DNA of 64,000 bases from Candidatus Marinacidobacterales bacterium (lineage in GTDB: Bacteria; Acidobacteriota; Vicinamibacteria; Marinacidobacterales; DATDRI01): contig OZ245365.1 of NCBI GenBank assembly GCA_965226495.1, positions 5,792,001 through 5,856,000 on the forward strand, given 5' to 3'. The stretch's first letter is position 1. Every line of letters begins with the position of its first letter. The notes under the pieces are model-generated. The model was given only the letters and a program-made list of their open reading frames with translations. It was not told the DNA's origin and searched no databases. This document shows positions 50,324-63,832 of this stretch, one piece after another. The position numbers and the translations under genes are program-made.

Positions 50324-52093
50324 CTAGAGATCCTTACGCTTGGACGCTTCCGTCTCCGGCTCGTCGAGCCAGATCTTGTTCATCTTGATATAGGTGTAGC
50401 CCATGGGTGATAGAGAGAAGCCCCGCACGTTGGGTCGAACCAGAAAGCGAGACCGGCCGTAATCGAGAGGGATGATCGGCGAGTCATGAAGGATCATCTT
50501 CTCGATACGACGGTAGAGATTGTTCCGTTCCTTATAGCTGGTCTCTGACCAAGCGAGGTCGAGCAGACTGTCCACCTCGGGGTTGTTGTAGCCGGAGCGG
50601 TTAACGGGCGACGCGGAATGGAACAAGACGCGAAGGAAGTTGTCCGGGTCCGGGAAGTCGGCGATCCAGCCGTTTTGCAGTAGAAACGGACTCTCCTCGA
50701 AGACCGGATCGCTCAACGGGACCAAGTTTCTGACCTTGTAGGGTTGGACCTCGATTCCGATCTTCGCCATGCAGCTCGTGATGCATTCTCTGCGGGCCGC
50801 CGAGTGCGGGTCGTCCCGTCCAAAGACGATCGTCTTGATGGGGGGAAGGTTTCTTCCCTCTGGGAAACCGGCCTTCGCCAGGAGCTGCTTCGCCTTATCA
50901 GCGTCGTGTCCCCAGGATGCACCCATCGGGAAGAATCCTGGGATCCCTGGTGGCACGATACCCGTCGCGGCTGGAGTTCCCGCGGTAAAACGGCTGGAAT
51001 CCAGGAGCGCTCGTTTGTTGAGTGCGTAATTGATGGCGCGCCGCACGCGCGGATCGTCATAGGGTGCCACTTGTGTCGGAAAATAGTAGTAGTTGAGCTC
51101 CAGCAGTTTGTCGGTCTCTACCCGGACCCAGTCGTAGTAGCGGTCGATCGGCGCTTCGATGCAATCGACCAGCTCGTTGAGGGGTTTTTCTTCCTGTGCG
51201 TTCGGTACGTTGACGATCGCGCGGAAGACGACGGCATTTAGATGAGGACGCCCTCCAAGATAGTGAGCATTCGCGTCCAGTCGAACGCCTTGCGGAACTC
51301 CCTTGAGGAACGGTATGGCCGGATCCTCTTCTCGACTCGTCCAGCGCGAGAATCGGAAAGGCCCCGCGCCGATCGGCTCCTTGAAGAAGTTCTCGCCCCT
51401 CTTGAGGACCTCTTTCTTCGGTAAGATCTTCGAGCTGTACATGCTGAAAACGGAGAGGGCGGGGACGAACGGCGTCGTGAAACGGATCTGAAACGTTCGC
51501 TCGTCGATGGCGCGAAGCCCGGCGACGGTTTTCGCTCTGCCTTCTCGAAAATCCTGTGCTCCAACGATGCGCGTGAAGTAATGATAGTTCGTCTCGTTCA
51601 AGCCTGGCGTGAGGAGTCTTTCGAAGGAGAAGACACAATCCTCGGCAGTGACCGGCTCACCGTTATGAAAGCGGGCTTCGGGGTGGAGCTCGAAGGTATA
51701 GGTCTTGCCGTCCGGTGAGATATCCCAATAACGAGCGAGCGCGGGCACGATGTTCAGATGCTGGTCGAACGCGGTGAGGCCCTCGTAGATTTGTTGGATC
51801 AGCATGATCTCGCTGCCACTCGTCGCCCTTGCTGGGTCGAGGGTCTGAACTGGTCGGAAGATAGGGAAACGGAAGACCCCGCCTTGAATGGTCTCCGGCT
51901 CATTGGCGACAGCGGTAGTCGCCGTGTATTTGTGTTTCGCGGCCAGAAAGAAAAATGCCGCGGTAACCAAGCAGAGGACCAAGAGCCCCCCCGGGATCAA
52001 CCAGGAGCGGGATCCCGTCCTGGCGAACCGCTTAGCCGTTTCCCCATCGGTATCGCTGGTAGATGGTGTGACTGGGTCGTTTTCTAGTTCCAT
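50324..52093 (-). CDS. Family 5 (peptide/nickel-type) solute-binding protein with N-terminal membrane anchor
   Basis: TLDPA, IYEGL, PALA..W, FHNGEPVTAED, PIGAGPF, VRRAINYA, WIADFPDPDNFL, YNNPEVD. Confidence 0.92.
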   Translation of the reverse strand: MELENDPVTPSTSDTDGETAKRFARTGSRSWLIPGGLLVLCLVTAAFFFLAAKHKYTATTAVANEPETIQGGVFRFPIFRPVQTLDPARATSGSEIMLIQQIYEGLTAFDQHLNIVPALARYWDISPDGKTYTFELHPEARFHNGEPVTAEDCVFSFERLLTPGLNETNYHYFTRIVGAQDFREGRAKTVAGLRAIDERTFQIRFTTPFVPALSVFSMYSSKILPKKEVLKRGENFFKEPIGAGPFRFSRWTSREEDPAIPFLKGVPQGVRLDANAHYLGGRPHLNAVVFRAIVNVPNAQEEKPLNELVDCIEAPIDRYYDWVRVETDKLLELNYYYFPTQVAPYDDPRVRRAINYALNKRALLDSSRFTAGTPAATGIVPPGIPGFFPMGASWGHDADKAKQLLAKAGFPEGRNLPPIKTIVFGRDDPHSAARRECITSCMAKIGIEVQPYKVRNLVPLSDPVFEESPFLLQNGWIADFPDPDNFLRVLFHSASPVNRSGYNNPEVDSLLDLAWSETSYKERNNLYRRIEKMILHDSPIIPLDYGRSRFLVRPNVRGFSLSPMGYTYIKMNKIWLDEPETEASKRKDL

Positions 52094-52299
52094 AGGGGCT
52101 TGCTTTCGTAAACTCTCAGGTATGACGCGATCGGCGGTTTACCCACGCCAATCTAAACAAGGAGCAGCTCCCCCCTGTGCGCCCAGATTAGATGATCGGG
52201 GTCCACTTCGCAAATGATGATGCTACGGGCCTTTCGCGGTGTGTAGCCGTCGAGGGGCGAGCAGGATACAATGCGTTGAGTCCTTCGGAAGGAGGGAAG

Positions 52300-54150
52300 A
52301 TGCGCCTACAAAACGTAGAAAAGACAACGCTTGCGCTGATGGCTACGGGTATGCTGTTCTCGGCCGCCGCTAGCTCTGAGCAGACCGCAAAACCTGTGCT
52401 TCACGGGGAGCACTGGATGGCGATCACCGGCAAGCCTCTGGCCGCCACGGCGGGAGCGATGACCTTCCAAAGGGGTGGCAATGCCGTCGATGCCGCCACG
52501 GCCATGTTGGCTGCCACTTGTACGATGTTTGATTCTCTAAGCTGGGGTGGGGAAACGCAGGCTCTTATCTACGACCCGAACACCAAGAAGGTGTATGGGA
52601 TCAATGCCTTGGGTGTGGCTCCCACTGGCGCCACGATCGATTACTTTCGGGGAAAGGATATGCCTTACCCTCCCGAGTACGGTCCTCTTGCCGCAGTCAC
52701 TCCAGGAACCCCGGGTGGCCTGCTGGTCATGTTGGCCGAGTACGGCCGCTTGAGTCTCAAGGACGTGCTGGAGCCCGCCATCCAGCTGGCCGACGGCTAT
52801 CCCATCGAGGAAGCGCGGTCGGCGAACATCGAGGAGGAGAAAGAGAGGATCAAGCAGTGGCCGTACTCGCGCCAGGTTCTCTTGCCGCACCTGGGTGAAG
52901 AGTATGAAGCCCCTCGTCCAGGGGAGATATTTCGCCAAGCCGATCTCGCAGCAACGCTTCGGAAACTCGTGGAGGCAGAGCAACAAGCACTGGCTGCGGG
53001 AAAGAACCGCAAGGAGGCCATATACGCCGCCTACGATCGATTCTACAAGGGCGACATCGCTCAAGAGTTCGTCCGGAGCTCGCAAGAACAGGGCGGGCTC
53101 CACACCCTGAAAGACTTGGCCAGCTGGAAGGTTTATCTCGAAGAACCCGTGAAAACGTCCTACAAAGGGATCGATGTCTACAAGCTGACGACGTGGGTTC
53201 AGGGACCCGTACTGTTGCAGGCACTCAACCTTCTCGAGAACATCGACGTGAAGTCGATGGGTTACAACTCCAGCCGATACATCCATACCCTTTACCAAGT
53301 CATGAACTTGGCTTTCGCCGATCGCGACTTCTATTACGGCGACCCCTACTTCCCACCCGAGGAGCCGGTGGAGGGGCTTCTGTCCAAGGAGTATGCCAAA
53401 GCGAGATTGAAGCAGATCGATTGGGAGCGAAACGATCCGAAGGTGAAACCCGGAGACCCGTATCCTTTTCAAGCACAACGAAACCCTTTCCTTCATTACT
53501 TGGATACTTGGGGAACCGAGCAGCCGGTCACGGCCGCCGCCGCGCGCTCCTTCGAAGAGGGTTTCTATGCCGGCACGACCTCCATCCAAGCCGCCGATGA
53601 GGAAGGATGGGTGGTGTCGGTGACGCCCAGCGGGGGATGGATCCCGGCCGCCATCGCAGGTAAGACCGGCATCGGAATGAGCCAGAGGATGCAGAGTTTC
53701 GTCCTCGACGCGGCGAAGAATCCATTCAATGTGCTCGAGCCCGGGAAAAGGCCACGTGCTACCCTGACGCCGAGCCTGGCGCTCAAGGAAGGAAAGCCGT
53801 TTCTCTCATTCGCGGTGCAGGGGGGCGATACGCAAGATCAGAATCTGTTGCAGTTCTTTCTGAACATGGTGGAGTTCGGAATGAACGTGCAGGAGGCGGC
53901 CGAAGCTCCGAACATCACAAGCTTTCAGATGCAGAGCTCTTTTGGGGCACACGAATCTGAGCCTGGAAGGCTGACGTTGAATGACTCCGTATCCCCCTGG
54001 GTGCGCGACGAGCTCGAGAAGATGGGCTACGACCTGGATTTTGAGCCGCGGACGTCGGGTCCCATCAATGCTATTTTCTTCGATTGGAAGCACGGAACCA
54101 TGTGGGGCGGGTCGAGCCACCACGGGGAGGACTACGGGATAGCCTGGTAG
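52300..54150 (+). CDS. ggt: Gamma-glutamyltransferase family protein (exported)
   Basis: GGNAVDAA, TPG, FYKGDIA, AFADRD, nucleophile GTTS, PGKRP, GGDTQ. Confidence 0.92.
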   Translation: MRLQNVEKTTLALMATGMLFSAAASSEQTAKPVLHGEHWMAITGKPLAATAGAMTFQRGGNAVDAATAMLAATCTMFDSLSWGGETQALIYDPNTKKVYGINALGVAPTGATIDYFRGKDMPYPPEYGPLAAVTPGTPGGLLVMLAEYGRLSLKDVLEPAIQLADGYPIEEARSANIEEEKERIKQWPYSRQVLLPHLGEEYEAPRPGEIFRQADLAATLRKLVEAEQQALAAGKNRKEAIYAAYDRFYKGDIAQEFVRSSQEQGGLHTLKDLASWKVYLEEPVKTSYKGIDVYKLTTWVQGPVLLQALNLLENIDVKSMGYNSSRYIHTLYQVMNLAFADRDFYYGDPYFPPEEPVEGLLSKEYAKARLKQIDWERNDPKVKPGDPYPFQAQRNPFLHYLDTWGTEQPVTAAAARSFEEGFYAGTTSIQAADEEGWVVSVTPSGGWIPAAIAGKTGIGMSQRMQSFVLDAAKNPFNVLEPGKRPRATLTPSLALKEGKPFLSFAVQGGDTQDQNLLQFFLNMVEFGMNVQEAAEAPNITSFQMQSSFGAHESEPGRLTLNDSVSPWVRDELEKMGYDLDFEPRTSGPINAIFFDWKHGTMWGGSSHHGEDYGIAW

Positions 54151-54155
54151 CTATG

Positions 54156-54220
54156 AAGTCGGGGACTGGCACCCTTTTCGTGTTGGAGCATAGCGGAAGA
54201 AGCCTGCCTGTCCCCGATTT
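54156..54220. repeat. REP-like imperfect palindrome (CGGGGACAGG family)
   Basis: AAGTCGGGGACTGGCA...TGCCTGTCCCCGATTT between convergent genes. Confidence 0.7.
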
Positions 54221-54221
54221 G

Positions 54222-55910
54222 CTACGGAGTTTCACCCGACAAGATGAACATCCGGCCGGTGCGAGCGCCTCCGATGGCGCTCCAGGCGGATGTCACCAGG
54301 AAATCGATCGATCCATCACCATCCACGTCGCCCATGCCGGTAGCGTCGAAGCCCAAGGTATCTCCCTGGACCCTGCTGGTGTAGGCTCGCATGAGTGAGC
54401 CGTCCTTGCCGGAGCGAAGATAGACCTTTCCGCCGGCCGGAGCAGCCCCGCTGTATTGCCACGCACCGACGATGAGGTCGTCGTGCCCGTCCTCATCGAC
54501 ATCGCCCGCATCGGCGGGGCCGATGCCGAACCCGTCCCCCGCCCCTTCGCCGGTAAGTGTCAACAGGCGCTCGCCGTTGGCGCCGGAGTGAACATAGATG
54601 CGCCCGGTTTGAGCCCCGAGCGCATTATCCGACCAGTCCGAGGCATAGACGTCTGCCACACCGTCTGCGTTCACATCGCCCACGACGGAAACGAACATGC
54701 CTCCGAGTTGCGACCCCGTCTCCTCGGCGTCGATTACGAAATCGATTTCACCGGAAGCGCCGGAGTAGACATATACGCGCCCCTTGTTCTCGGGGCCGGC
54801 GTTTGGTGCGCCTACGACGATGAGCTCGTGTTCACCGTCGAAGAGTCCGGCGGCAGAGCTGCCAAAGCCATCTCCCTCTTCTTCACCCGTCAGGGTCAGT
54901 AGAAGCGCACCGTCCTTCCCAGAAAAAACGTATGCTCGGCCTGCATCTTCCGCTTCCACGTCGCTGCCCGGCGCACCTACGATGACATCATCGTGGCCGT
55001 CTCCGTTTAGGTCTCCCAGGTCGGAGACCTTGCGGCCAAACATATCGCCCTTCACTTCGGCGGTGAGCGTGAGCAGCAGGCTGCCATCCCTTCCCGAAAA
55101 GACGTAAGTCTCGGCCGCTCCGGGTGCGCCGGCGATGACGTCCGGAATACCGTCGGCATTGGTGTCTCCAGCCGCTTCGATGCCCAAGCCAAGTTGGTTG
55201 CCGGGTTTGCCCGACTGAGTCCAAATGAGCTCTCCGGTGCGACCGGAGTAGACGTATATGCGTCCCGATCTTGGTCCGTCCATCTCCAAGTTGGGGGCCG
55301 ACGTGGTGAGGTCGTTCACGCCGTCGCCGTCGACATCACCGATGTTTCGAGCGATCCATCCGAAGGTGCCGCCCTTGGCCTCGCCGATCCACTCATTGAG
55401 AATGCGGGTGTCCTCAACGAAGGGGTCGCGGAAATCTGCCGGCTTCGGGAGCAGTTCTTGGAAACGGGAGTCTTCTCGAAGGCTCTTGAAGTTGGGGTCG
55501 ATCTCGATCTTTGTCATGTCGACCCGACCCGTCTCCTGTGCCTTCGTCAGCCACTCGAAGGCCTTGTCCTTGTCACCATTCAGAGCGTAGGCGCACGCTG
55601 CGTTGTACATGGCATCCGGTGCGGTGTCGGGAAACTCGGTTGCCTTGAGGTAAGCGGGCAAGGCGCGGTCGAGGAATCCCATAGAGTGAAGGGCCATTCC
55701 TAGGAGTGACCAAGCCCTGGCGTTGTCCGGTTGGTTCTTCGTCACTTCGTTGAGGATGACGACAGCGCCCGTGAAGTCTCGCGCCTGCACGAGCTCGATG
55801 GCCTTTTCGACCTGGTCGTCCGAAGCGCTCTCGGACTCGGGCGCCGGTGAAGAACATCCGAGCCAGCCTATTCCGACGGCGAGAAGAAGAGAGTAAACCT
55901 TCCTCGTCAT
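54222..55910 (-). CDS. Lipoprotein with TPRs and FG-GAP (integrin-like) propeller
   Basis: LGC lipobox; YNAACAYAL TPR; repeated GDVDGDG..D...GAP...GR.YVYSG. Confidence 0.88.
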   Translation of the reverse strand: MTRKVYSLLLAVGIGWLGCSSPAPESESASDDQVEKAIELVQARDFTGAVVILNEVTKNQPDNARAWSLLGMALHSMGFLDRALPAYLKATEFPDTAPDAMYNAACAYALNGDKDKAFEWLTKAQETGRVDMTKIEIDPNFKSLREDSRFQELLPKPADFRDPFVEDTRILNEWIGEAKGGTFGWIARNIGDVDGDGVNDLTTSAPNLEMDGPRSGRIYVYSGRTGELIWTQSGKPGNQLGLGIEAAGDTNADGIPDVIAGAPGAAETYVFSGRDGSLLLTLTAEVKGDMFGRKVSDLGDLNGDGHDDVIVGAPGSDVEAEDAGRAYVFSGKDGALLLTLTGEEEGDGFGSSAAGLFDGEHELIVVGAPNAGPENKGRVYVYSGASGEIDFVIDAEETGSQLGGMFVSVVGDVNADGVADVYASDWSDNALGAQTGRIYVHSGANGERLLTLTGEGAGDGFGIGPADAGDVDEDGHDDLIVGAWQYSGAAPAGGKVYLRSGKDGSLMRAYTSRVQGDTLGFDATGMGDVDGDGSIDFLVTSAWSAIGGARTGRMFILSGETP

Positions 55911-56313
55911 TCCGTTCTCCTTGTTGATTGTCAGTCTACCGAAACCACGCCGCATTCGAGTCGAGAAGTTGCATACGATCGATGTTAGAGGGCGGCTAGG
56001 ACGAAGTCAAAGAGGTAGCAGACAAGCAATGGCGACCTCGTCTACCCGTACCGGGCGTGCTACTCTCTTTCTCGAAGTAAACCTACGTGAACGTTGATTG
56101 CGGAGGCAGGTTGATATGGGCAGCCGGTCCGACGACCGAGATAGCGGTCGGCGACAAGGTGTCGATCTCGCGGGGCGTGGAGATGCGCGATTTTTCGAGC
56201 CCTTCTCTCGGGCGAACCTTCGAGAGCATATACTTTGTCACGGGCATTCAGATGTGAGAACAGTCACGGTAAAATAGCACTGCCGACAAAAGGTCTTAAC
56301 GGCTTGATTGACC

Positions 56314-57222
56314 CTAGACCTTGATCGTTCCCTCCGCGACTTCTACGGCTGTGCCACCCACCCGCACCTCGGTCGGGTTGTTTTCGGTTCCATCGACCTC
56401 GACGTAGATCGTACTCGGGCGTCCCATCTCGTACCCCTGCTCCACGATCAAGTGGGCAGTGGGACTGGCGTTCAGTACACCGTGCCGAACCAAGTAGGCA
56501 CCCAGAGCCCCCGCCGCACTTCCCGTCGCGGGGTCCTCGGGCACACCGAGCTCGGGGGCGAACATACGAGCATGGACAGTGGAGTTCGGTTGCACGGTTT
56601 GCCGGGTGAAGATCATGAAGCAGTCGGTCTCCATGGTCTTGAAGATCTTTCGCATGGCGACGAGGTCGAGCTCGATGGCTTCGAGGTCTTTGAGCCCTTG
56701 CGCAGGAACCATGAGTTGAGGAACGGCGGTCGACACGACCTCGGCGGGAAGTCCGTCGGGGAGTAGTCGATCCTCTTCGAGACCGACCGCCGCGGCCAGG
56801 AGCTGGCGGCTGGTCGTGCTCCGGAAGAACTGAGGGGTCGCCTGCGTCATATAGACGCGAGCGACCTTGCCTTCCCGGACGTGGATATCGACGGGGAGGA
56901 CACCGGCTCCACACTCTTGAAAAATACGGTTGGTGCCTTCTTCGAGAGGGAATCGGCCCTTCTGGGCCAGAACGAAGCAGGTCCCCACCACGGGATGCCC
57001 GGCCAGTGGGAGCTCTTTCGCGGGCGTGAAAATTCGAAGGCGGAAGGTGGCCGAGGGATCCTCGGAGGGTAAAACGAAAGTCGTCTCGGAGAGGTTCATC
57101 TCGTTGGCGATAGCTTGCATTTGCTCCGTTGAGAGCCCCGAGCCGTCGGGGATGATGGCGAGCGGATTCCCGGCAAAAGCGCGATCGGTGAAGACATCAG
57201 CCTGGATGAAGGGGACTTCCAT
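56314..57222 (-). CDS. PhzF family isomerase
   Basis: DVFT...GNP, EMNLSETTF, RIFTP..ELPLAGHP, EDPATGSA, EQGYEMGRPS. Confidence 0.93.
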   Translation of the reverse strand: MEVPFIQADVFTDRAFAGNPLAIIPDGSGLSTEQMQAIANEMNLSETTFVLPSEDPSATFRLRIFTPAKELPLAGHPVVGTCFVLAQKGRFPLEEGTNRIFQECGAGVLPVDIHVREGKVARVYMTQATPQFFRSTTSRQLLAAAVGLEEDRLLPDGLPAEVVSTAVPQLMVPAQGLKDLEAIELDLVAMRKIFKTMETDCFMIFTRQTVQPNSTVHARMFAPELGVPEDPATGSAAGALGAYLVRHGVLNASPTAHLIVEQGYEMGRPSTIYVEVDGTENNPTEVRVGGTAVEVAEGTIKV

Positions 57223-57247
57223 GCGAGCTATCATACACTGAGCGAAC

Positions 57248-58282
57248 ATGACTCCTGAAGTCAGCATCCTCCTTCTTTGTTTCAATGCTGCCACCTACCT
57301 TTCGGAGTGCTTTGCGAGCCTCTTCTGCCAGAGTCTCGATCGATTCGAGATCATCGTGGTCGATGATGGCTCCGAGGACGACACGCAGCGTCTTCTTTCT
57401 CAGGTTGCAGAATCCGACGAAAGAGTTCGAGTCTTCACGCAAGGTCATTGCGGTATTGCAACGGCGCTCCTCACCGCAAGCCGAAAGGCGCGAGCTCCGC
57501 TACTGGCCCGAATGGATGCCGACGACATTTGCCAACCCGAGCGGCTTGCCGTGCAGACGCAGTTTCTTCGAGCTCATCCCGACGTCGGGGTCGTCGCATC
57601 GCGCGTCCGCATGTTCCCCCGCGACGGGTTGTCCGATGGGCTCTTGCGGTACGAACGTTGGGTGAACGGGCTTCTAGCGCACGACCAAATTCTGCGGGAT
57701 CTTTTCGTGGAGAGCCCTCTACCTCATCCCTCGGTGATGATGCGACGGGAATGCCTTGAACGCGCGGGTGGTTATAGGGAATCCGGTTGGCCCGAGGACT
57801 ACGACCTGTGGATGCGGATGGCGAGAGCGAAGGTGCGGTTCGGGAAAACTCCCGAGGAGCTGCTTTTATGGAGAGATTGGAGCGAGAGAGCGAGCCGCAC
57901 CGACCCACGCTTCAGTGAGGAAAGCTTCCTGTCATTGAAAGAACACTATCTCGTGGAAAAGTTTCTCGCCGATCGCGCTCCCGTCGCGATCTGGGGCGCG
58001 GGCCCGGTCGGTAAAGGCTGGGCGCGCAGGTTAGCGGCCAGGGGAGTCGAAGTCAGTCATTTCGTCGAGGTGGACCCGCGCAAGATCGGTAAACGCATTC
58101 ACGATGCGAAGGTCGTCGCTGCGACCGAGCTCGACACGCTTCGAGGAACGTTCCTTCTCGTCGCGGTCGGCGCATTGAGTCGTCAGGCGGGGGCGGCGTT
58201 TGTCTCGGCGCGTGAGGAGATTCGCGCCCAGCTCGGTGAGGCCAGCTTCGTGGACGGTCGCGATTACGTTTGCGTGGCTTAG
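57248..58282 (+). CDS. Glycosyltransferase family 2 with C-terminal Rossmann-like domain (QTGAL/B3GNTL1-like)
   Basis: VDDGS, MDADD, PEDY; C-terminal IWGAGPVGK...EVDPRKIG...DGRDY. Confidence 0.9.
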   Translation: MTPEVSILLLCFNAATYLSECFASLFCQSLDRFEIIVVDDGSEDDTQRLLSQVAESDERVRVFTQGHCGIATALLTASRKARAPLLARMDADDICQPERLAVQTQFLRAHPDVGVVASRVRMFPRDGLSDGLLRYERWVNGLLAHDQILRDLFVESPLPHPSVMMRRECLERAGGYRESGWPEDYDLWMRMARAKVRFGKTPEELLLWRDWSERASRTDPRFSEESFLSLKEHYLVEKFLADRAPVAIWGAGPVGKGWARRLAARGVEVSHFVEVDPRKIGKRIHDAKVVAATELDTLRGTFLLVAVGALSRQAGAAFVSAREEIRAQLGEASFVDGRDYVCVA

Positions 58283-58332
58283 GGCACGAGCTCGCCGTCG
58301 GAAAAGTCTTCCATCTTGCAATCCGGATCGGA

Positions 58333-58863
58333 TCACTCGAGTTCGACGCCCAGTCCCTGCGCCAGCCGATTCACGTACGCGTAGTAGCAGGTGACCTGGC
58401 ACGCGTCCAAGATGTCGGCGTCTTGCAGGCCCGCTTTTCGCATGGGCTCCAAGTCCTCTTGCTTGACGTTCCAGGGCTCTCGCGTCAGCTTGAGGGCGTA
58501 ATCGACGAGTGCCCTTTGTCGAGGCTCGAGGGGCGCGCTCCGAGGATCTTGCTTCAGGGCGCTTACCAGCTCTTGATCACCACTCAATCGGAGGAGACCC
58601 CTCGCGTGGTGCTCGATTCAATAGTGACATTCGTTTTCTTTAGACGCTGCAACGGCGATCATCTCCCGCTCGATGCGCGTGAGGCCGGAGGGTCCTCGCA
58701 TGAGATGAGCGTACAGCTTCAAATGCCCTTCGAGAGACGGAGGGTTTAGGCTGTGGATCTTGAGAATGTTGTCGACCCGTCCCGAGGGTTCACGGTAGCG
58801 CCCATACATCTCCGCGAGCTCTCCGTCGGCTTCGTCCTCTCGAATCATCCGAATCCATGCCAC
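58333..58863 (-). CDS. AhpD/CMD-like peroxidase-related selenoprotein (176 aa, Sec at codon 82)
   Basis: ORFs 58618-58863 and 58333-58587 are in frame and separated by one TGA that completes N-E-C-H-Y-U-I-E-H-H; SECIS directly downstream; C-terminal YVNRLAQGLGV. Confidence 0.9.
58578..58611 (-). promoter_or_regulatory. Bacterial SECIS element
   Basis: CACCAC...GAGG-GGUCU-CCUC...GUGGUG; the loop begins 18 nt after the UGA. Confidence 0.8.
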
Positions 58864-58904
58864 CCGCGCACCTCCTCCGGTAATTGGAGCCCTATTAGAT
58901 AATA

Positions 58905-60647
58905 ATGATGGAAGGATCGAAAATGTCGATGCGGGGAGCCTTCGTTGTCGCGATTGTCTCCTATGTGCTTTTTTGCCTCTTCTGGTTCGATACCGGCGTC
59001 AAAGAGATCCTTTCCTTCCTACCTGCGTTCCTTCGGTCTCCTGTGATCCCGGCCGTGGTTTTCGCAATCGCACTCGGGGTTCTCTTGCGCCAGAAGGGTT
59101 TCCCCAAGCTCTTCAAAGAGAAAGCGGACAATCGCCTCGCGGTTTTGTTCTTTGTACTGAGCCTGATCACTCGCATCCCGCTCCTCGTCGGGGCTTACGG
59201 AATCCCTAGCTCGGACGCCGCGGTCCACGGCGTGATGGCTCTGCACATCCTCGAGGGGAAACACCATCCTGTGTTCAGTTATGCCGAATCCTATGACGGA
59301 AGCCTGAAGGCGCATCTTACGGCGCTCCTCACGATGCTGAGCGGGGACCCGGTGGTGAGCTTCACTGCGGCGGGCATCCTTCTTTATGGCGGATTCGTCG
59401 TCGCGCTCTATGCGCTTGCCCGAACCGTGCTGACCCGGGGTGAGTCGGCGTTCGCCGCGGCCTACGCGATTTTGTCTCCCGGATTTCTCACTGCCTGGGG
59501 CGTGAAGGCCGACGGCAGTTACGTCGAGGTGCTCTTTTTCGGCACGGCGCTTTTGGCTGTTGGTGCGCGCCTTTTGGGAGATCCGAATGACCGGGCTCGT
59601 CGGCGGGCGTTCTGGATGGGTGTCCTGGGAGGTCTCGCCCTGTGGGCCCACATCCTTTCCACGTACTACTTGTTGGTGGCTCTTATCGTCTTGGTTGCCG
59701 CGGATTGGACTCGCAAGAGTTTCGAGCGCTTGGCGCTATTTCTGGTCGGTTTTCTCTTGGGGAACCTCCCTCTCTTTCTCTGGAACCTCACGCGTTACGG
59801 ACAAAGCTACCGCTGGTGGACCCAGGACGAGTCCACTCTCGCCGAACGTGTCGTTCGAACGGCGAACCAGATTCAGGCGGTCGCCGTCGAATCTCTTCCC
59901 GTACTGGCTGGCTGGTGGCCGATGGATTTCCCGACGCACCCGGCAATGGCATTCATCCTGGGAGTCGCCCTCATGGTGATCTTTCCCGCCGCCTTCTGCG
60001 GGTTCATCTTCCAGAAGCGGGACCGTCTGCGGGAGGTGGCGCGGGCCCGGTTGACTCCAGAGAGCATGCTCGTCGTCTTTGCGATGCTCGTCGTAGCCGT
60101 CTTCGCGCAGAGTGCGTTCGGTTGGCTCACCAAAGAGCCGCGCTACCTCATTTTTCTATTTTCGGTTATTCCCATTTTCCTAGCGTCGTCTCTGGCAGGT
60201 CTGGCAGGCATGAGAAGATACTCGCGTTGGGCGGCGGGCCTAGTGGCGGGCCTCGTTCTGGCCCTCAATATTTACGGCAGCGGGCTCTACAGCGTGCGGG
60301 CCCTCGAGAGCGCTGCCGCAAATCGCGAGTTCGTTCGGGAGCTCGAGGAGCTTGGGGTGCGGTACGCGTATACCGATTTCTACATCTCTTATAAATACAT
60401 TTTTCTCTCCCATGGCCGGTTGTTGATGACTTCGGAGCTCGGTCCCGAGCAGACCGAACGCTACCCACCGTATCGTGACGAGATGGCGAAGGCGGAAAAC
60501 GTGGCTCTCATCCCCCGAAGCTTCCGCATGGCAGAGCGTATCGGCCGGCGTCTCGATGCCCAGGGCGTGACCTACCGGCGCGAGGATCTCCTCTATCCGG
60601 TTATTTATGATTTGAGCGAGCCGGTCCGGCTCGAGTGGCTGCGCTAA
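58905..60647 (+). CDS. Polytopic membrane glycosyltransferase (GT-C / ArnT-PMT-like)
   Basis: Many TMs; SDAAVHGVMALHI..G..PVFSY..SYDGSL loop; EPRY motif. Confidence 0.75.
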   Translation: MMEGSKMSMRGAFVVAIVSYVLFCLFWFDTGVKEILSFLPAFLRSPVIPAVVFAIALGVLLRQKGFPKLFKEKADNRLAVLFFVLSLITRIPLLVGAYGIPSSDAAVHGVMALHILEGKHHPVFSYAESYDGSLKAHLTALLTMLSGDPVVSFTAAGILLYGGFVVALYALARTVLTRGESAFAAAYAILSPGFLTAWGVKADGSYVEVLFFGTALLAVGARLLGDPNDRARRRAFWMGVLGGLALWAHILSTYYLLVALIVLVAADWTRKSFERLALFLVGFLLGNLPLFLWNLTRYGQSYRWWTQDESTLAERVVRTANQIQAVAVESLPVLAGWWPMDFPTHPAMAFILGVALMVIFPAAFCGFIFQKRDRLREVARARLTPESMLVVFAMLVVAVFAQSAFGWLTKEPRYLIFLFSVIPIFLASSLAGLAGMRRYSRWAAGLVAGLVLALNIYGSGLYSVRALESAAANREFVRELEELGVRYAYTDFYISYKYIFLSHGRLLMTSELGPEQTERYPPYRDEMAKAENVALIPRSFRMAERIGRRLDAQGVTYRREDLLYPVIYDLSEPVRLEWLR

Positions 60648-60664
60648 TGGATGCTCTTGTTCCG

Positions 60665-60782
60665 TTACTTCCTCTCCCTCTGGGGACCGAGGCCGTCAAA
60701 ATACGCTGTGCCAAAGAGAAGGTGGCCAGACGGCGGGTGAGGGATACTCGAGCTTACTCCCTCTCCCTCTGGGAGAGGGCCG
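60665..60782. repeat. Tandem BoxC-type repeats, the first with an inserted cassette
   Basis: CCTCTCCCTCTGGG-[GGCCGTCAAAATACG...CCAGACGGC]-GGGTGAGGG, then CCCTCTCCCTCTGGGAGAGGGCCG. Confidence 0.82.
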
Positions 60783-60783
60783 A

Positions 60784-61194
60784 CTAGGTGGCCCGGCCGT
60801 GCAGTACCGACCGGATGTCTGCGAGGCGATACAACTTTCCTTTGCCGGCACCGTGGCACGTTTCCTTCACCGCGTTCCATGTTTCGGGCGATTCGAGGTT
60901 TTCCGGCCAGAACGGGAACGTGCGGCATTGTCGTGGCCGGACCGGATAGATCGTGCAGCCGCCATCCCAAAAGATGCAGTCTCCGTTCCGACGGATGCGC
61001 AGGCTCGGCGCTCCGTCGAGGTCTTTGAGCATGTATTTATTTCGGAACTTGCTGAGGGAAAGTTTGAGCCAGCCGGCGATGCGCTTGACCTCGGGTCGGC
61101 TCGGATAGACGCCACCGGCCTGCGCGCCTCGACAACAGTTGTGACACTGCTGGCAGTCAAAACGAAGTCCGCCTTGGTAGAAAGGCTCGGCCAT
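60784..61194 (-). CDS. YkgJ family cysteine cluster (CxxCxxCC) protein
   Basis: FDCQQCHNCCRG, CIFW..GCTIYPVRPRQCRTFPFW. Confidence 0.9.
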   Translation of the reverse strand: MAEPFYQGGLRFDCQQCHNCCRGAQAGGVYPSRPEVKRIAGWLKLSLSKFRNKYMLKDLDGAPSLRIRRNGDCIFWDGGCTIYPVRPRQCRTFPFWPENLESPETWNAVKETCHGAGKGKLYRLADIRSVLHGRAT

Positions 61195-61252
61195 GTTTTC
61201 GGTGACAATACCACACTCCTAAGGTCCTGGGTATAATCGCCGCTCTGAAAGC

Positions 61253-63832
61253 ATGATCAGCTATCTTCGGGCGACACTCGTAACCGCTTCCATTTTCGCG
61301 GCGTTTGGTTTCTCTCGATACCTGGACGGGTTCATTCGAGTGTTCCTCCGCCAGCAGACCGGCGAATCGTTCCTCACCGCGTCGGCCAGGAATCTTCGTG
61401 CCGGAGAGGCCATCGGAGACGTCCTGACGGTGATGAGTTTTGGGCTCTTCCTCTGGCTGGCGATCTCGTTCCTTGTCGCCTGGCTCTGCGAACGGCCGAT
61501 GAGTGAACTGCTAATCCGGATCGGCCGCTCGATGGCACCTCTTCTGCTCCCGGCCGGGCTGACATTCGTTTCCTGTCTGTCACTCATCCTTTCGCCGCAG
61601 TTCCCCTTCGGTTTGAACTTCATTTTGACGCTTAGCTACGAAGGCTCCTTCGCCTCCGTGCTTACATGGGCTCTCTTGGCTTTGTCTCTCGCCGTTACGA
61701 TCTGGCATCTCGCCGATCCCCGACCGTCACTCGCTTTCCTGATCATGACCGGTCGACACGATCGTCGTTGGCGGCTCGGCGGTGCTGCGATCGTGGTTCT
61801 CGCGATGACCATCTTTGCGTTGGCCACTCCGCCCTGGCTTTGGAAGGACGGTGAAGGTCAAGGGAACATGTTCAAGTACCTACGCATGGCGGCGGCCATT
61901 TCTTCGTCGGGAACGTTGGACATCGCGAGGGCGGAAGGGGCCGCCGAAAGTGCAAGCTTCCCAGGATTCCTCTCACGACTTCCCGAGATCGCTTCGCGAT
62001 GGGTGGGCGAAACGTCCGAGCTTGGGGGAGCGTTCGTCAGCTCCGCGAGCAAAGGAAAGCTCTACGTCGGAGAAGTCGTCGCAACACGGGCCAACCGTTC
62101 GATGTTTCGAAGCCCAAACGGAGGGATTTATTACATCAACGCCCCCGGGCCGGGGCTCCTCTTGGTCCCGCCCTACTTGCTGGATCGAGCGTTGAATCGA
62201 TGGCTGGGGTGGGACCGTCAAGTCGCGGCCATTCTCTTTTGGAACCTCCTCGGTGCAATGTTGGTCTTGGAGATCTTCCGAGCCGCCCGCGAGGTGGATG
62301 TGGGGTGGGGGGCGGCCTTTGTTGCCGCCTTCGTCCTCGCGGTGTCGCCCCCGCTCCTTCTTTATACGTACCAAATCTATCCAGAGCTTCCCGCCGCACT
62401 TCTCTTGCTGTATGCATTTCGACGGCTTTTCATCGAGCCGGCGCCGAGCGGAAACGGGTTGTTGTTTGGTGCGATGGCGCTCGCCTTCTTGCCTTGGCTT
62501 CACCAAAAGTACTCGCTCACCGCCGCGATCATGGGCGTTTTCATCGCCTGGCGGATTTTCGGCTCGGCACCGAGCCGGTCGGAGCGCATCGTCCGTTGGG
62601 GTCTTCTCTTTGCGCCTCTCATTGTTTCTGCGCTTTCGATCTCGGTCTATAACCACGCGTTGACAGGAAGCATTCTTCCCGATGCGACGTTCCGGGCGGC
62701 AGGACGAACGTCCTTCGAGCCGGGTAACGTGCTTTCCGGCCTTCTAGGCCTCTTCCTCGATAGGGAGAACGGGCTCTTCATTTACGCCCCCATTTATGCG
62801 CTCGCGCTCGCCGGGCTAGGGCGACTGGCGTTCCGCTACCGCGAGATCCGTTTCTATCTGGCGGTGGTGGTCTTGTCCTACGTTTTCGTGATCGCGTCCT
62901 TTCCTCACTGGCCTGGGGCGGTGAGCTCTGTCGCCCGCTACATTCTTAGTGTCACTCCGTTGGCCGCGCTGCCTCTAGTCTTCGTGCTACGAAGAAGCTC
63001 TTCCGATGGCATCCTTGCCGGTGTGGCCATGGTGCTTTTTGCGGCGACCATGTCATTTACGGTTGTTTTTCAGAAGGACATCGTTGCTAGTCATCTCACC
63101 AAGCTACTACTCGACAAGGCGCTCTTTAGCGATCCCTACCAATACTTGCCTACCTTCTTGAGCGAAGGGCTGGTGGGATCGGGTCCGGCTCACTTCTACA
63201 AGCTCGGTGCATTGGTTGTCTTGCTGGTTCTCTTGGTCTACACGCTCTCACCTCGCGTTGAGCAAGAAGTGCTCGAGAGTGAACGCGATCGCGATGCGAC
63301 GCTTTTTCCCAGGAGAGTGACGCTCGGTGCTGCCGCCGCGGTCGGAGCTCTCGTGGTCGTGGCGGGAGTTTTGGAACGCCTGCCCTCGAATGCCACGACC
63401 AAGACCGGCCCCGTCTTCAACGACACCCACGCGATCCGCCGCGCCGCACAAACGGCCAAGTTCTGGACGGAGGGCCGCTACGGATTCGAGAACCGAGGTG
63501 TTTGGGTTCCCGGCGGCGAAGAGACACAGTTTTTCGTGCAAGCGGACCATCCCATCGAAAGGCTTCAACTAATCCTCACGAATACGCCAAGCGAGAACCG
63601 AGTGCAGATCAAGCAACGGGGTGCCGATCCTTTGGACAAACTGCTTACGTCCTCCGCCCGCGAGGCAATTGTATTGTCTCTCCGTCGGCCGCAGGAGTTC
63701 CGAGGGCCTTCCGGAAACCAGTGGGTCTACGAGATCACCGTCCGCTCGCGAGGAAGCTACGTTCCTCGTCGGGAGGGGACGGGAGAGGATCCACGACCGC
63801 TTGGATGCTTTGTAGTTCTTTCTGCTATGTAA
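61253..63832 (+). CDS. Large polytopic membrane protein, possible GT-C glycosyltransferase
   Basis: More than 12 hydrophobic segments; YPELPAALL, PWLHQKY, GLFLDRENGLFIYAP, ARY motifs; soluble C-terminal domain. Confidence 0.7.
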   Translation: MISYLRATLVTASIFAAFGFSRYLDGFIRVFLRQQTGESFLTASARNLRAGEAIGDVLTVMSFGLFLWLAISFLVAWLCERPMSELLIRIGRSMAPLLLPAGLTFVSCLSLILSPQFPFGLNFILTLSYEGSFASVLTWALLALSLAVTIWHLADPRPSLAFLIMTGRHDRRWRLGGAAIVVLAMTIFALATPPWLWKDGEGQGNMFKYLRMAAAISSSGTLDIARAEGAAESASFPGFLSRLPEIASRWVGETSELGGAFVSSASKGKLYVGEVVATRANRSMFRSPNGGIYYINAPGPGLLLVPPYLLDRALNRWLGWDRQVAAILFWNLLGAMLVLEIFRAAREVDVGWGAAFVAAFVLAVSPPLLLYTYQIYPELPAALLLLYAFRRLFIEPAPSGNGLLFGAMALAFLPWLHQKYSLTAAIMGVFIAWRIFGSAPSRSERIVRWGLLFAPLIVSALSISVYNHALTGSILPDATFRAAGRTSFEPGNVLSGLLGLFLDRENGLFIYAPIYALALAGLGRLAFRYREIRFYLAVVVLSYVFVIASFPHWPGAVSSVARYILSVTPLAALPLVFVLRRSSSDGILAGVAMVLFAATMSFTVVFQKDIVASHLTKLLLDKALFSDPYQYLPTFLSEGLVGSGPAHFYKLGALVVLLVLLVYTLSPRVEQEVLESERDRDATLFPRRVTLGAAAAVGALVVVAGVLERLPSNATTKTGPVFNDTHAIRRAAQTAKFWTEGRYGFENRGVWVPGGEETQFFVQADHPIERLQLILTNTPSENRVQIKQRGADPLDKLLTSSAREAIVLSLRRPQEFRGPSGNQWVYEITVRSRGSYVPRREGTGEDPRPLGCFVVLSAM

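Follow-up and report, generated by a model that had tools for sequence, protein, structure and literature searches.

The 64,000-nucleotide stretch of Candidatus Marinacidobacterales DNA analyzed here (the window) contains a gene for a 344-residue protein, referred to below as GT, that is predicted to be soluble and that joins a family-2 glycosyltransferase (GT2) domain to a small Rossmann-like domain. Our tentative proposal, in which we place somewhat less than even confidence, is that GT is a cytoplasmic inverting hexosyltransferase with a putative activity on a nucleotide-bearing acceptor, most likely the queuosine at position 34 of tRNA (Q34). It would then be the bacterial counterpart of the animal queuosine-tRNA galactosyltransferase (QTGAL, also called B3GNTL1). 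A first-pass annotation had named GT a candidate bacterial homologue of QTGAL that may glycosylate a tRNA nucleoside or another nucleic-acid-like substrate; this interpretation is partly supported by the present analysis and is plausible but unproven. The gene, the predicted folds of its two domains, their conserved motifs, the predicted solubility, the size and patchy spread of the family and its independence from glycan loci are established directly here. The features of the gene are collected in Table 1.

The Pfam profile Glycos_transf_2 (PF00535) matches residues 6–171 with an E-value of 2.2e-28 and 99.8 bits (cut-off 23.3), which places GT among the GT2 enzymes. None of the NCBIfam equivalogs comes near its cut-off, the best being EpsE with 74.9 bits versus 450, and the C-terminal domain has weak Pfam and NCBIfam matches to CoA_binding, PglD_N and Rex. 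The motifs read out by the first-pass annotation are all present and in the order given, namely, RYERWVNGL at residue 134, PEDY at 182, LLLWR at 205, IWGAG at 248, FVEVDPRKIG at 272, and DGRDY at 336. The architecture that it described, a GT2 core and a C-terminal domain in one chain, proves to be real and is kept at full length across a large bacterial family. It had also claimed that there is no signal peptide; indeed, none was found in the protein, nor was a membrane segment, the maximal Kyte–Doolittle hydropathy (19-residue mean) being 1.54 as compared to 2.4–2.5 in two membrane proteins encoded downstream.

The AlphaFold2 model of the whole protein, calculated with 18 homologues, has a mean predicted local distance difference test (pLDDT) score of 92.4 and a predicted template modeling score of 0.89. 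In this model, residues 1 to about 210 form a GT-A domain, a basic linker of helical structure follows, and residues from about 241 to 344 make up a separate α/β domain. In a Foldseek search of the PDB, the whole model retrieves generic GT-A enzymes only, at E-values around 1e-14 and over the first 220–270 columns, among them heparosan synthase, SpsA, chondroitin polymerase (K4CP), WrtF, RmlT, and TarS. A GT-A fold with a DxD-type metal/nucleotide site is thus predicted by the model. GT shares this fold, the DDGS motif and the DxD motif with SpsA-type GT2 enzymes and with the chondroitin and heparosan synthase modules (1qg8, 2z86, 8vh7), and an inverting mechanism would be expected for it. Unlike GT, these enzymes, which act in glycan loci, have neither the Rossmann-like C-terminal domain nor the family-specific motifs YExWxN, ExPxHP, and WR..R..R, and they cover the model from residue 1 to about 250 only.

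The C-terminal 133 residues (212–344), modeled alone, reach a pLDDT of 92.4. The VIA-align comparison of this domain gives as best matches the N-terminal domain of a CapD-type uridine diphosphate (UDP)-sugar dehydrogenase (3nkl; Z 12.2, rmsd 1.9, 92 aligned), the cytosolic domain of WbaP (8t53; Z 10.3, rmsd 2.1, 91 aligned), Rex (5zz5; Z 9.2, rmsd 2.3, 89 aligned), and the N-terminal domain of the PglD/VioB acetyltransferases (7txp; Z 8.8, rmsd 2.0, 86 aligned), and coenzyme A (CoA)-binding domains match as well. Foldseek, used with the C-terminal domain alone, also finds Rex as the best match (E 5e-4), with six matches at E ≤ 1e-3. These small Rossmann modules share the fold of GT residues 241–344 at an identity of 15–25%, but none of them is fused behind a GT2 domain. 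Their own ligands are NAD(H), CoA, and nucleoside diphosphate (NDP)-sugars, the binding of a ligand by the domain in GT being putative. No QTGAL entry was found in the PDB, either by sequence or by fold.

GT belongs to a large bacterial family. The best 120 database matches are 44–99% identical to it, with 117 of them spanning 92% or more of the query; the few with a name are assigned to Vicinamibacteria (91%), other Acidobacteriota, Armatimonadota, Gemmatimonadota, Longimicrobiales, Desulfuromonadales, and "Deltaproteobacteria", and further members from Pseudomonadota, Verrucomicrobiota, Myxococcota, and Bacteroidota emerge from the full-length ESM-Atlas search. With a profile built on the last 236 residues, 921 clusters at 50% identity are retrieved at E ≤ 1e-30 from a set of 1.84 billion representatives. 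Relatives of GT occur in at least 588 species genomes, among them those of the cultivable, non-pathogenic Geomonas edaphica Red53, Geomesophilobacter sediminis Red875, Anaeromyxobacter soli SG29, and strains of Sorangium. The family, present as a single copy, was found in 28 of the 401 genomes (23 of 231 genera) of an Acidobacteriota sample, hereafter the phylum sample, and in 21 of the 101 genomes of a Gemmatimonadota sample. It is thus conserved, single-copy, and widespread but patchy in bacteria.

Members from different phyla are about 45–50% identical. An alignment of 189 sequences has 49 positions with an identity of at least 93%, among them Y135, W138, N140, E183–L187, W208, R209, G250-A251-G252, K279, and G281, and the motifs are therefore not a product of chance. 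Conserved basic residues crowd the linker and the C-terminal domain (R209, R214, R217, K231, K256, R278, K279, R322, and R326), and the median net charge over the alignment is +5 for the C-terminal domain versus −6 for the rest of the protein. Some members are fused to further domains, namely, to a 2-thiouracil desulfurase domain (DUF523; P0242, one cluster, on a 74-kb contig), to CYTH domains (four clusters, P0245–P0247 and P0250, including clusters of 96 and 14 members), to a class I methyltransferase (P0340), and to HEAT repeats (P0255 and P0256). These fusions lend mild and non-specific support to a chemistry of nucleotides or nucleobases.

Proteins of 130–180 residues that consist of the C-terminal domain alone were also encountered (P0128, P0141, P0225, and others), some of them on contigs of 20–468 kb. 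Split or stand-alone forms of this domain may exist, and most of the 440 short matches described below are probably fragments at contig ends. The profile PF22674 (C2185-like_N), which is listed for some homologues, has no match in this genome.

The lead to the animal enzyme comes from the C-terminal domain. When residues 212–344 alone were submitted to the ESM-Atlas, the match at rank 5 (score 0.85, 162 of 256 features) was a cluster automatically named [quoted passage not shown], which has 100 members, 71% of them from Eukaryota, with Bacteroidota as the commonest known phylum. Atlas scores below 0.9 are taken as leads only. The full-length search of the same database returned bacterial GT2 clusters only. 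No eukaryotic relative was seen in the near-length search, where the best 120 matches are all bacterial, nor in the search of the C-terminal profile against proteins of 73–233 residues, where the best 120 of 440 matches are bacterial fragments or stand-alone C-terminal domains. The 236-residue profile gave 32 matches among proteins of at least 414 residues, none with a eukaryotic name, and the 921-cluster search gives the best 150 of 921 without names. Eukaryotic proteins could not have appeared in these searches, because they list only the best 120–150 matches of a family of 921 clusters.

We take animal QTGAL to consist of a GT2 domain and a C-terminal domain in a single soluble chain. GT has this layout, with a GT2 domain and a conserved C-terminal α/β domain in one chain of about 350 residues that is predicted to be soluble. 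On this assumption, the two proteins are alike in their GT-A domain, in a C-terminal domain of about 110–130 residues, in their similar length, in a cytosolic location, and in having no signal peptide. GT differs from QTGAL in that it is bacterial, in that its family is found in a minority of the queuosine-making bacteria, and in that its link to tRNA-Tyr and UDP-galactose is limited to a GalE-like neighbor at 4 of 80 loci (see below). The order of the motifs across both domains of the human protein presumably agrees with that of GT, as listed in the first-pass annotation; three human motifs quoted there were not found in the literature searched. From the lead-level Atlas match and this presumed likeness, we consider a true two-domain homology between GT and animal QTGAL to be probable.

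The eukaryotic enzyme QTGAL is said to have been described by Zhao et al. in Cell in 2023. To our knowledge, animals are the only known source of glycosylated queuosines, and the enzymes that write them were named only in that year. According to a review (PMC11755703) and a study of mosquitoes (PMC11705514), QTGAL is B3GNTL1, galactosyl-queuosine (galQ) is present on tRNA-Tyr in mammals, and in mosquitoes the loss of the gene accompanies the loss of galQ. The available part of a 2026 preprint on QTGAL contains no passage on its domains or on bacterial homologues. The literature searched yielded nothing that links B3GNTL1 or queuosine glycosylation with bacteria, in agreement with the first-pass annotation, which held that a system for tRNA glycosylation in bacteria would be a novelty.

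The genomic context of the relatives was considered next to the structural evidence. It was examined at 80 loci with 8-kb flanks, 60 of which extend for 3 kb or more to either side. A Pfam scan (E ≤ 1e-10) covered 129 crude open reading frames (ORFs) within 2.2 kb of the GT gene at 33 of these loci, many of the ORFs having no Pfam match, and the remaining 47 loci were compared by BLAST clustering only. No neighbor family recurs in more than 12 of the 80 loci according to the clustering, and the commonest ones are generic. The gene orders specific to single lineages are of a housekeeping kind, such as uvrA-GT-gyrA in Gemmatimonadota and NUDIX-GT-DUF2288-DUF480-hflX in Geobacter-like genomes. 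At the 33 scanned loci, the surrounding 2.2 kb were found to contain neither a second glycosyltransferase nor a flippase, polymerase, or exporter; LptF/G and a CpsB/CapC-type phosphatase each occur there once. At 4 of the 80 loci (L025, L028, L031, and L075), mostly in Anaerolineales, a GalE-like NAD-dependent sugar-nucleotide epimerase is encoded no more than about 2 kb from the GT gene, three of these cases being identified by the Pfam scan and the fourth by clustering.

A location mostly in lipopolysaccharide or exopolysaccharide loci would have counted against a role like that of QTGAL; the homologues were found outside such loci, since none of the 33 scanned loci is of this kind and the clustering of all 80 showed no neighbor family in more than 12. 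The claim that the gene is not in a polysaccharide cluster holds for the homologues, whereas it holds only in part for the window, in which two glycosyltransferase-like membrane proteins are encoded 0.6–3 kb downstream. A soluble, single-copy, and conserved protein encoded among unrelated housekeeping genes is easier to reconcile with a universally conserved substrate, for example tRNA, than with a glycan that varies.

With regard to queuosine, the host genome contains tgt, queA, and queG, all of them 0.7–1 Mb from the GT gene (tgt at about 1 Mb), while queH was not found in it. From the presence of the three genes, the tRNA of the host is predicted to contain queuosine. The Rfam search of the whole window gave no match, and hence no preQ1 riboswitch.

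Several lines of evidence argue for queuosine in tRNA as the acceptor. The full-length architecture and the motifs are conserved across many phyla; the family comprises 921 clusters; the C-terminal domain alone leads to the QTGAL-named Atlas cluster; and the conserved basic residues, the positive charge of the C-terminal domain, and the nucleotide-binding modules as its nearest folds point in the same direction. The nucleobase-type fusions, the GalE-like epimerase, the queuosine genes of the host, and the presence of tgt in the carriers of GT are also consistent with it.

On this basis, a possible mode of action can be outlined. GT would be a cytoplasmic, metal-dependent, inverting family-2 enzyme, the bacterial counterpart of the two-domain QTGAL. 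Its N-terminal GT-A domain would bind a UDP-hexose and a divalent metal ion at the DDGS and RMDADD motifs, and the EDYD acidic cluster may provide the catalytic base. The basic linker and the net-positive Rossmann-like domain, with its GxGxxG-K and D-x-x-K-I-G motifs, could keep an acceptor that carries a nucleotide or a phosphate facing the active site. For this acceptor, the most likely candidate would be the cyclopentenediol of queuosine-34 in a tRNA with a GUN anticodon, the product being hexosyl-queuosine. Both the donor sugar and the acceptor are inferred here, as is any effect on decoding.

A number of observations weigh against this proposal. The link to QTGAL consists of leads, the Atlas score of 0.85 lying below the 0.9 line of reliability. 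The nearest structural relatives of the C-terminal domain belong to sugar-nucleotide and glycan enzymes, and an NDP-sugar-like ligand therefore fits this domain as well as RNA does. Both in the window and at the locus L001, from a related Acidobacteriota metagenome-assembled genome (MAG), the GT gene adjoins genes of putative GT-C-like membrane proteins. When the ORFs of at least 200 residues from the tgt, queA, and queG loci of the host genome were used as tblastn queries against the 80 GT loci, those from the queA and queG loci had no match within 8 kb at any locus, and no gene of the queuosine pathway is a regular neighbor. The tgt gene lies 6–9 kb from GT in L045 (15128–16231), L077 (15063–16160), and G258 (C103) only, in the first two 6–7 kb downstream; since these three are related Acidobacteriota, the proximity represents a single evolutionary event.

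The co-occurrence with queuosine genes had been suggested as a check in the first-pass annotation. It is seen for tgt in 42 of the 43 carriers of GT that were checked (28 of 28 in the phylum sample and 14 of 15 from other phyla), the gene not being found in the carrier MAG G403, which has 2.3 Mb and a completeness that is unknown. This agreement carries no information, however, because tgt is near-universal (398 of the 401 genomes of the phylum sample, a tally that includes the unpublished genomes G048, G145, and G023) and its presence has no discriminating power. Moreover, most queuosine-making bacteria do not have the GT family (present in 7% and 21% of the genomes in the two samples), and it is thus not part of the core queuosine pathway. 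Finally, no report of glycosylated queuosine from bacteria was found in the literature searched.

The main alternative, which we regard as a real possibility although one that we would not expect to hold, is that the fold of GT and its kinship to QTGAL are as described, but its substrate is another cytoplasmic acceptor, such as a nucleotide-sugar, a nucleotide-like cofactor, a phosphorylated small metabolite (for instance a compatible solute or a thiol precursor), a protein, or a different base in RNA or DNA. In such a case, the C-terminal domain would bind the nucleotide part of the acceptor or an allosteric nucleotide. This agrees with the best structural matches of the domain, all of them nucleotide or NDP-sugar modules (3nkl, WbaP, Rex, and VioB, with the Z-scores given above), with its GxGxxG-type loop and the conserved acidic residue after strand 2, and with the patchy spread (7–21% of genomes), which is typical of accessory metabolism. 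The CYTH, methyltransferase, and thiouracil desulfurase domains that are fused to some members suggest nucleotide and small-molecule chemistry in general, and a consistent neighborhood of queuosine genes is not seen. On the other hand, there is no biosynthetic cluster alongside GT, no neighbor family exceeding the 12 of 80 loci noted above, a high conservation across phyla with no conserved partner would be unusual for specialized metabolism, and the Atlas lead is specific to QTGAL.

We consider it improbable that GT is an ordinary GT2 enzyme, in which the likeness to QTGAL would be limited to the GT-A core, the C-terminal domain would be an unrelated Rossmann module, and the agreement of the motifs would be a coincidence. 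It is true that every named match in sequence or structure is a generic GT2 enzyme, that bacterial GT2 clusters alone came out of the Atlas search with the whole protein, that no eukaryotic protein is among the matches listed in the sequence searches, and that the QTGAL match in the Atlas stays below 0.9. Nevertheless, eukaryotic proteins could not have been among the best 120–150 matches of so large a family, the QTGAL-named cluster was retrieved by the C-terminal domain alone, that is, without the GT2 core, and the motif list given in the first-pass annotation spans both domains in the same order.

A role in envelope glycans had to be considered as well. GT would in this case synthesize a polyprenyl-phosphate sugar or elongate a lipid-linked glycan, and the two GT-C-like proteins encoded downstream would transfer the product outside the cytoplasm, in analogy to the ArnC/ArnT, GtrB/GtrC, and DPM1/PMT pairs, with which GT has the GT2 core in common. 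Such a GT2/GT-C pairing was considered because both downstream membrane proteins have weak glycosyltransferase-like matches (Table 1), and at L001 a 560-residue homologue of the nearer one, 50% identical to it, directly follows the GT gene on the same strand, the AhpD-like gene that separates the two in the window being absent. However, this synteny is seen at 1 of the 80 loci only and belongs to a longer block that two related genomes have in common: positions 50324–63832 of the window are syntenic with L001:5108–13760 at 45–68% identity. Relatives of the 580-residue protein occur in 10 of the 401 genomes of the phylum sample, and 3 of these 10 carry GT, in two cases (G058 and G258) with the two genes on different contigs; one of the seven GT-negative genomes among the ten is the unpublished G048, and 25 of the 28 GT carriers do not have the protein. 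The GT-C partnership was rejected on the grounds of this isolated synteny and of the lack of co-occurrence in the phylum sample. Unlike enzymes of the ArnC, GtrB, and DPM1 type, GT has no membrane anchor; its C-terminus is predicted to be a globular Rossmann-like domain rather than a membrane or amphipathic segment. The 33 scanned loci also have none of the glycan-pathway neighbors named above within 2.2 kb, and an envelope-glycan function is unlikely, and the least likely of the readings considered here.

Returning to queuosine-34 as the acceptor, the proposal has implications that go beyond the single gene. In its broadest form, at least ten bacterial phyla would carry a true QTGAL orthologue that attaches a hexose to tRNA at queuosine-34, a bacterial modification not described so far, and animals, which import queuine from bacteria, would have acquired the enzyme from bacteria; this form we hold to be doubtful. 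With a bacterial counterpart of QTGAL, a new modification would join the repertoire of bacterial tRNA, a tractable microbial system would become available for the effect of the sugar-coating of Q34 on decoding and tRNA stability, and the result would bear on the origin of the animal enzyme. The members of the family are now labeled just "glycosyltransferase" or "cell wall biosynthesis", and a role as the bacterial counterpart would give a function to about 900 clusters. If the acceptor is a different one, the family is still an uncharacterized group of cytoplasmic glycosyltransferases with an unusual nucleotide-binding accessory domain.

Table 1. Positions in the window of the GT gene, of its domains and motifs, and of the two membrane proteins encoded downstream
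Feature	Position	Strand	Basis
Whole gene, 344-residue two-domain GT2 glycosyltransferase, predicted soluble	57248..58282	+	ORF list; ATG start, stop codon 58280–58282
N-terminal GT-A catalytic domain, residues 1–210	57248..57877	+	PF00535; Foldseek matches
DDGS, residues 39–42, putative nucleotide-binding motif, by analogy to GT2 enzymes	57362..57373	+	D40, G41, S42 ≥93% conserved (n = 189)
RMDADD, residues 88–93, putative DxD-type metal/UDP-sugar diphosphate site, by analogy to GT-A enzymes	57509..57526	+	R88, D90, D92, D93 ≥93% conserved
RYERWVNGL, residues 134–142, family-specific helix motif	57647..57673	+	Y135, W138, N140 nearly invariant
PEDYDLWMR, residues 182–190, acidic E/D cluster at the place of the GT2 catalytic base (putative catalytic role)	57791..57817	+	E183, D184, Y185, D186, L187, R190 ≥93% conserved
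Basic linker and helix, residues 205–240, with conserved W208, R209, R214, R217, K231	57860..57967	+	Family alignment; model helices 215–218 and 224–238
C-terminal small Rossmann-like domain (CoA-binding/Rex/CapD-N/PglD-N type), residues 241–344	57968..58279	+	WGAGxxGK 248–256, VDPRKIG 275–281; structure model
580-residue polytopic membrane protein, 0.6 kb downstream of GT	58905–60647	+	Weak PMT_2 match, E 0.0077
859-residue polytopic membrane protein, 3 kb downstream of GT	61253–63832	+	Weak LA_3751/LA_3752 glycosyltransferase-family match, 37 bits versus cut-off 200

The local gene order in the window is SBP5, PhzF, GT, the AhpD-like gene, the 580-residue membrane protein, a CxxCxxCC protein, and the 859-residue membrane protein. 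The AhpD-like gene (58333–58863, minus strand), a "peroxidase-related enzyme" of TIGR01926, is split by an in-frame TGA at 58618–58620. With this codon read as selenocysteine, it would encode a 176-residue protein with a C-H-Y-U motif instead of CxxC. SelA is present in the genome, and the hairpin that follows the UGA is no more stable than shuffled sequence.

On the other side of GT lies the gene of a PhzF-family isomerase (56314–57294, minus strand), whose longest ORF overlaps the start of GT by 47 bp. The Pfam match of this protein begins at residue 33, and its probable ATG start is at 57222 on the minus strand, which would leave a divergent spacer of 25 bp between the two genes. The same divergent PhzF–GT pair is also found in L001.

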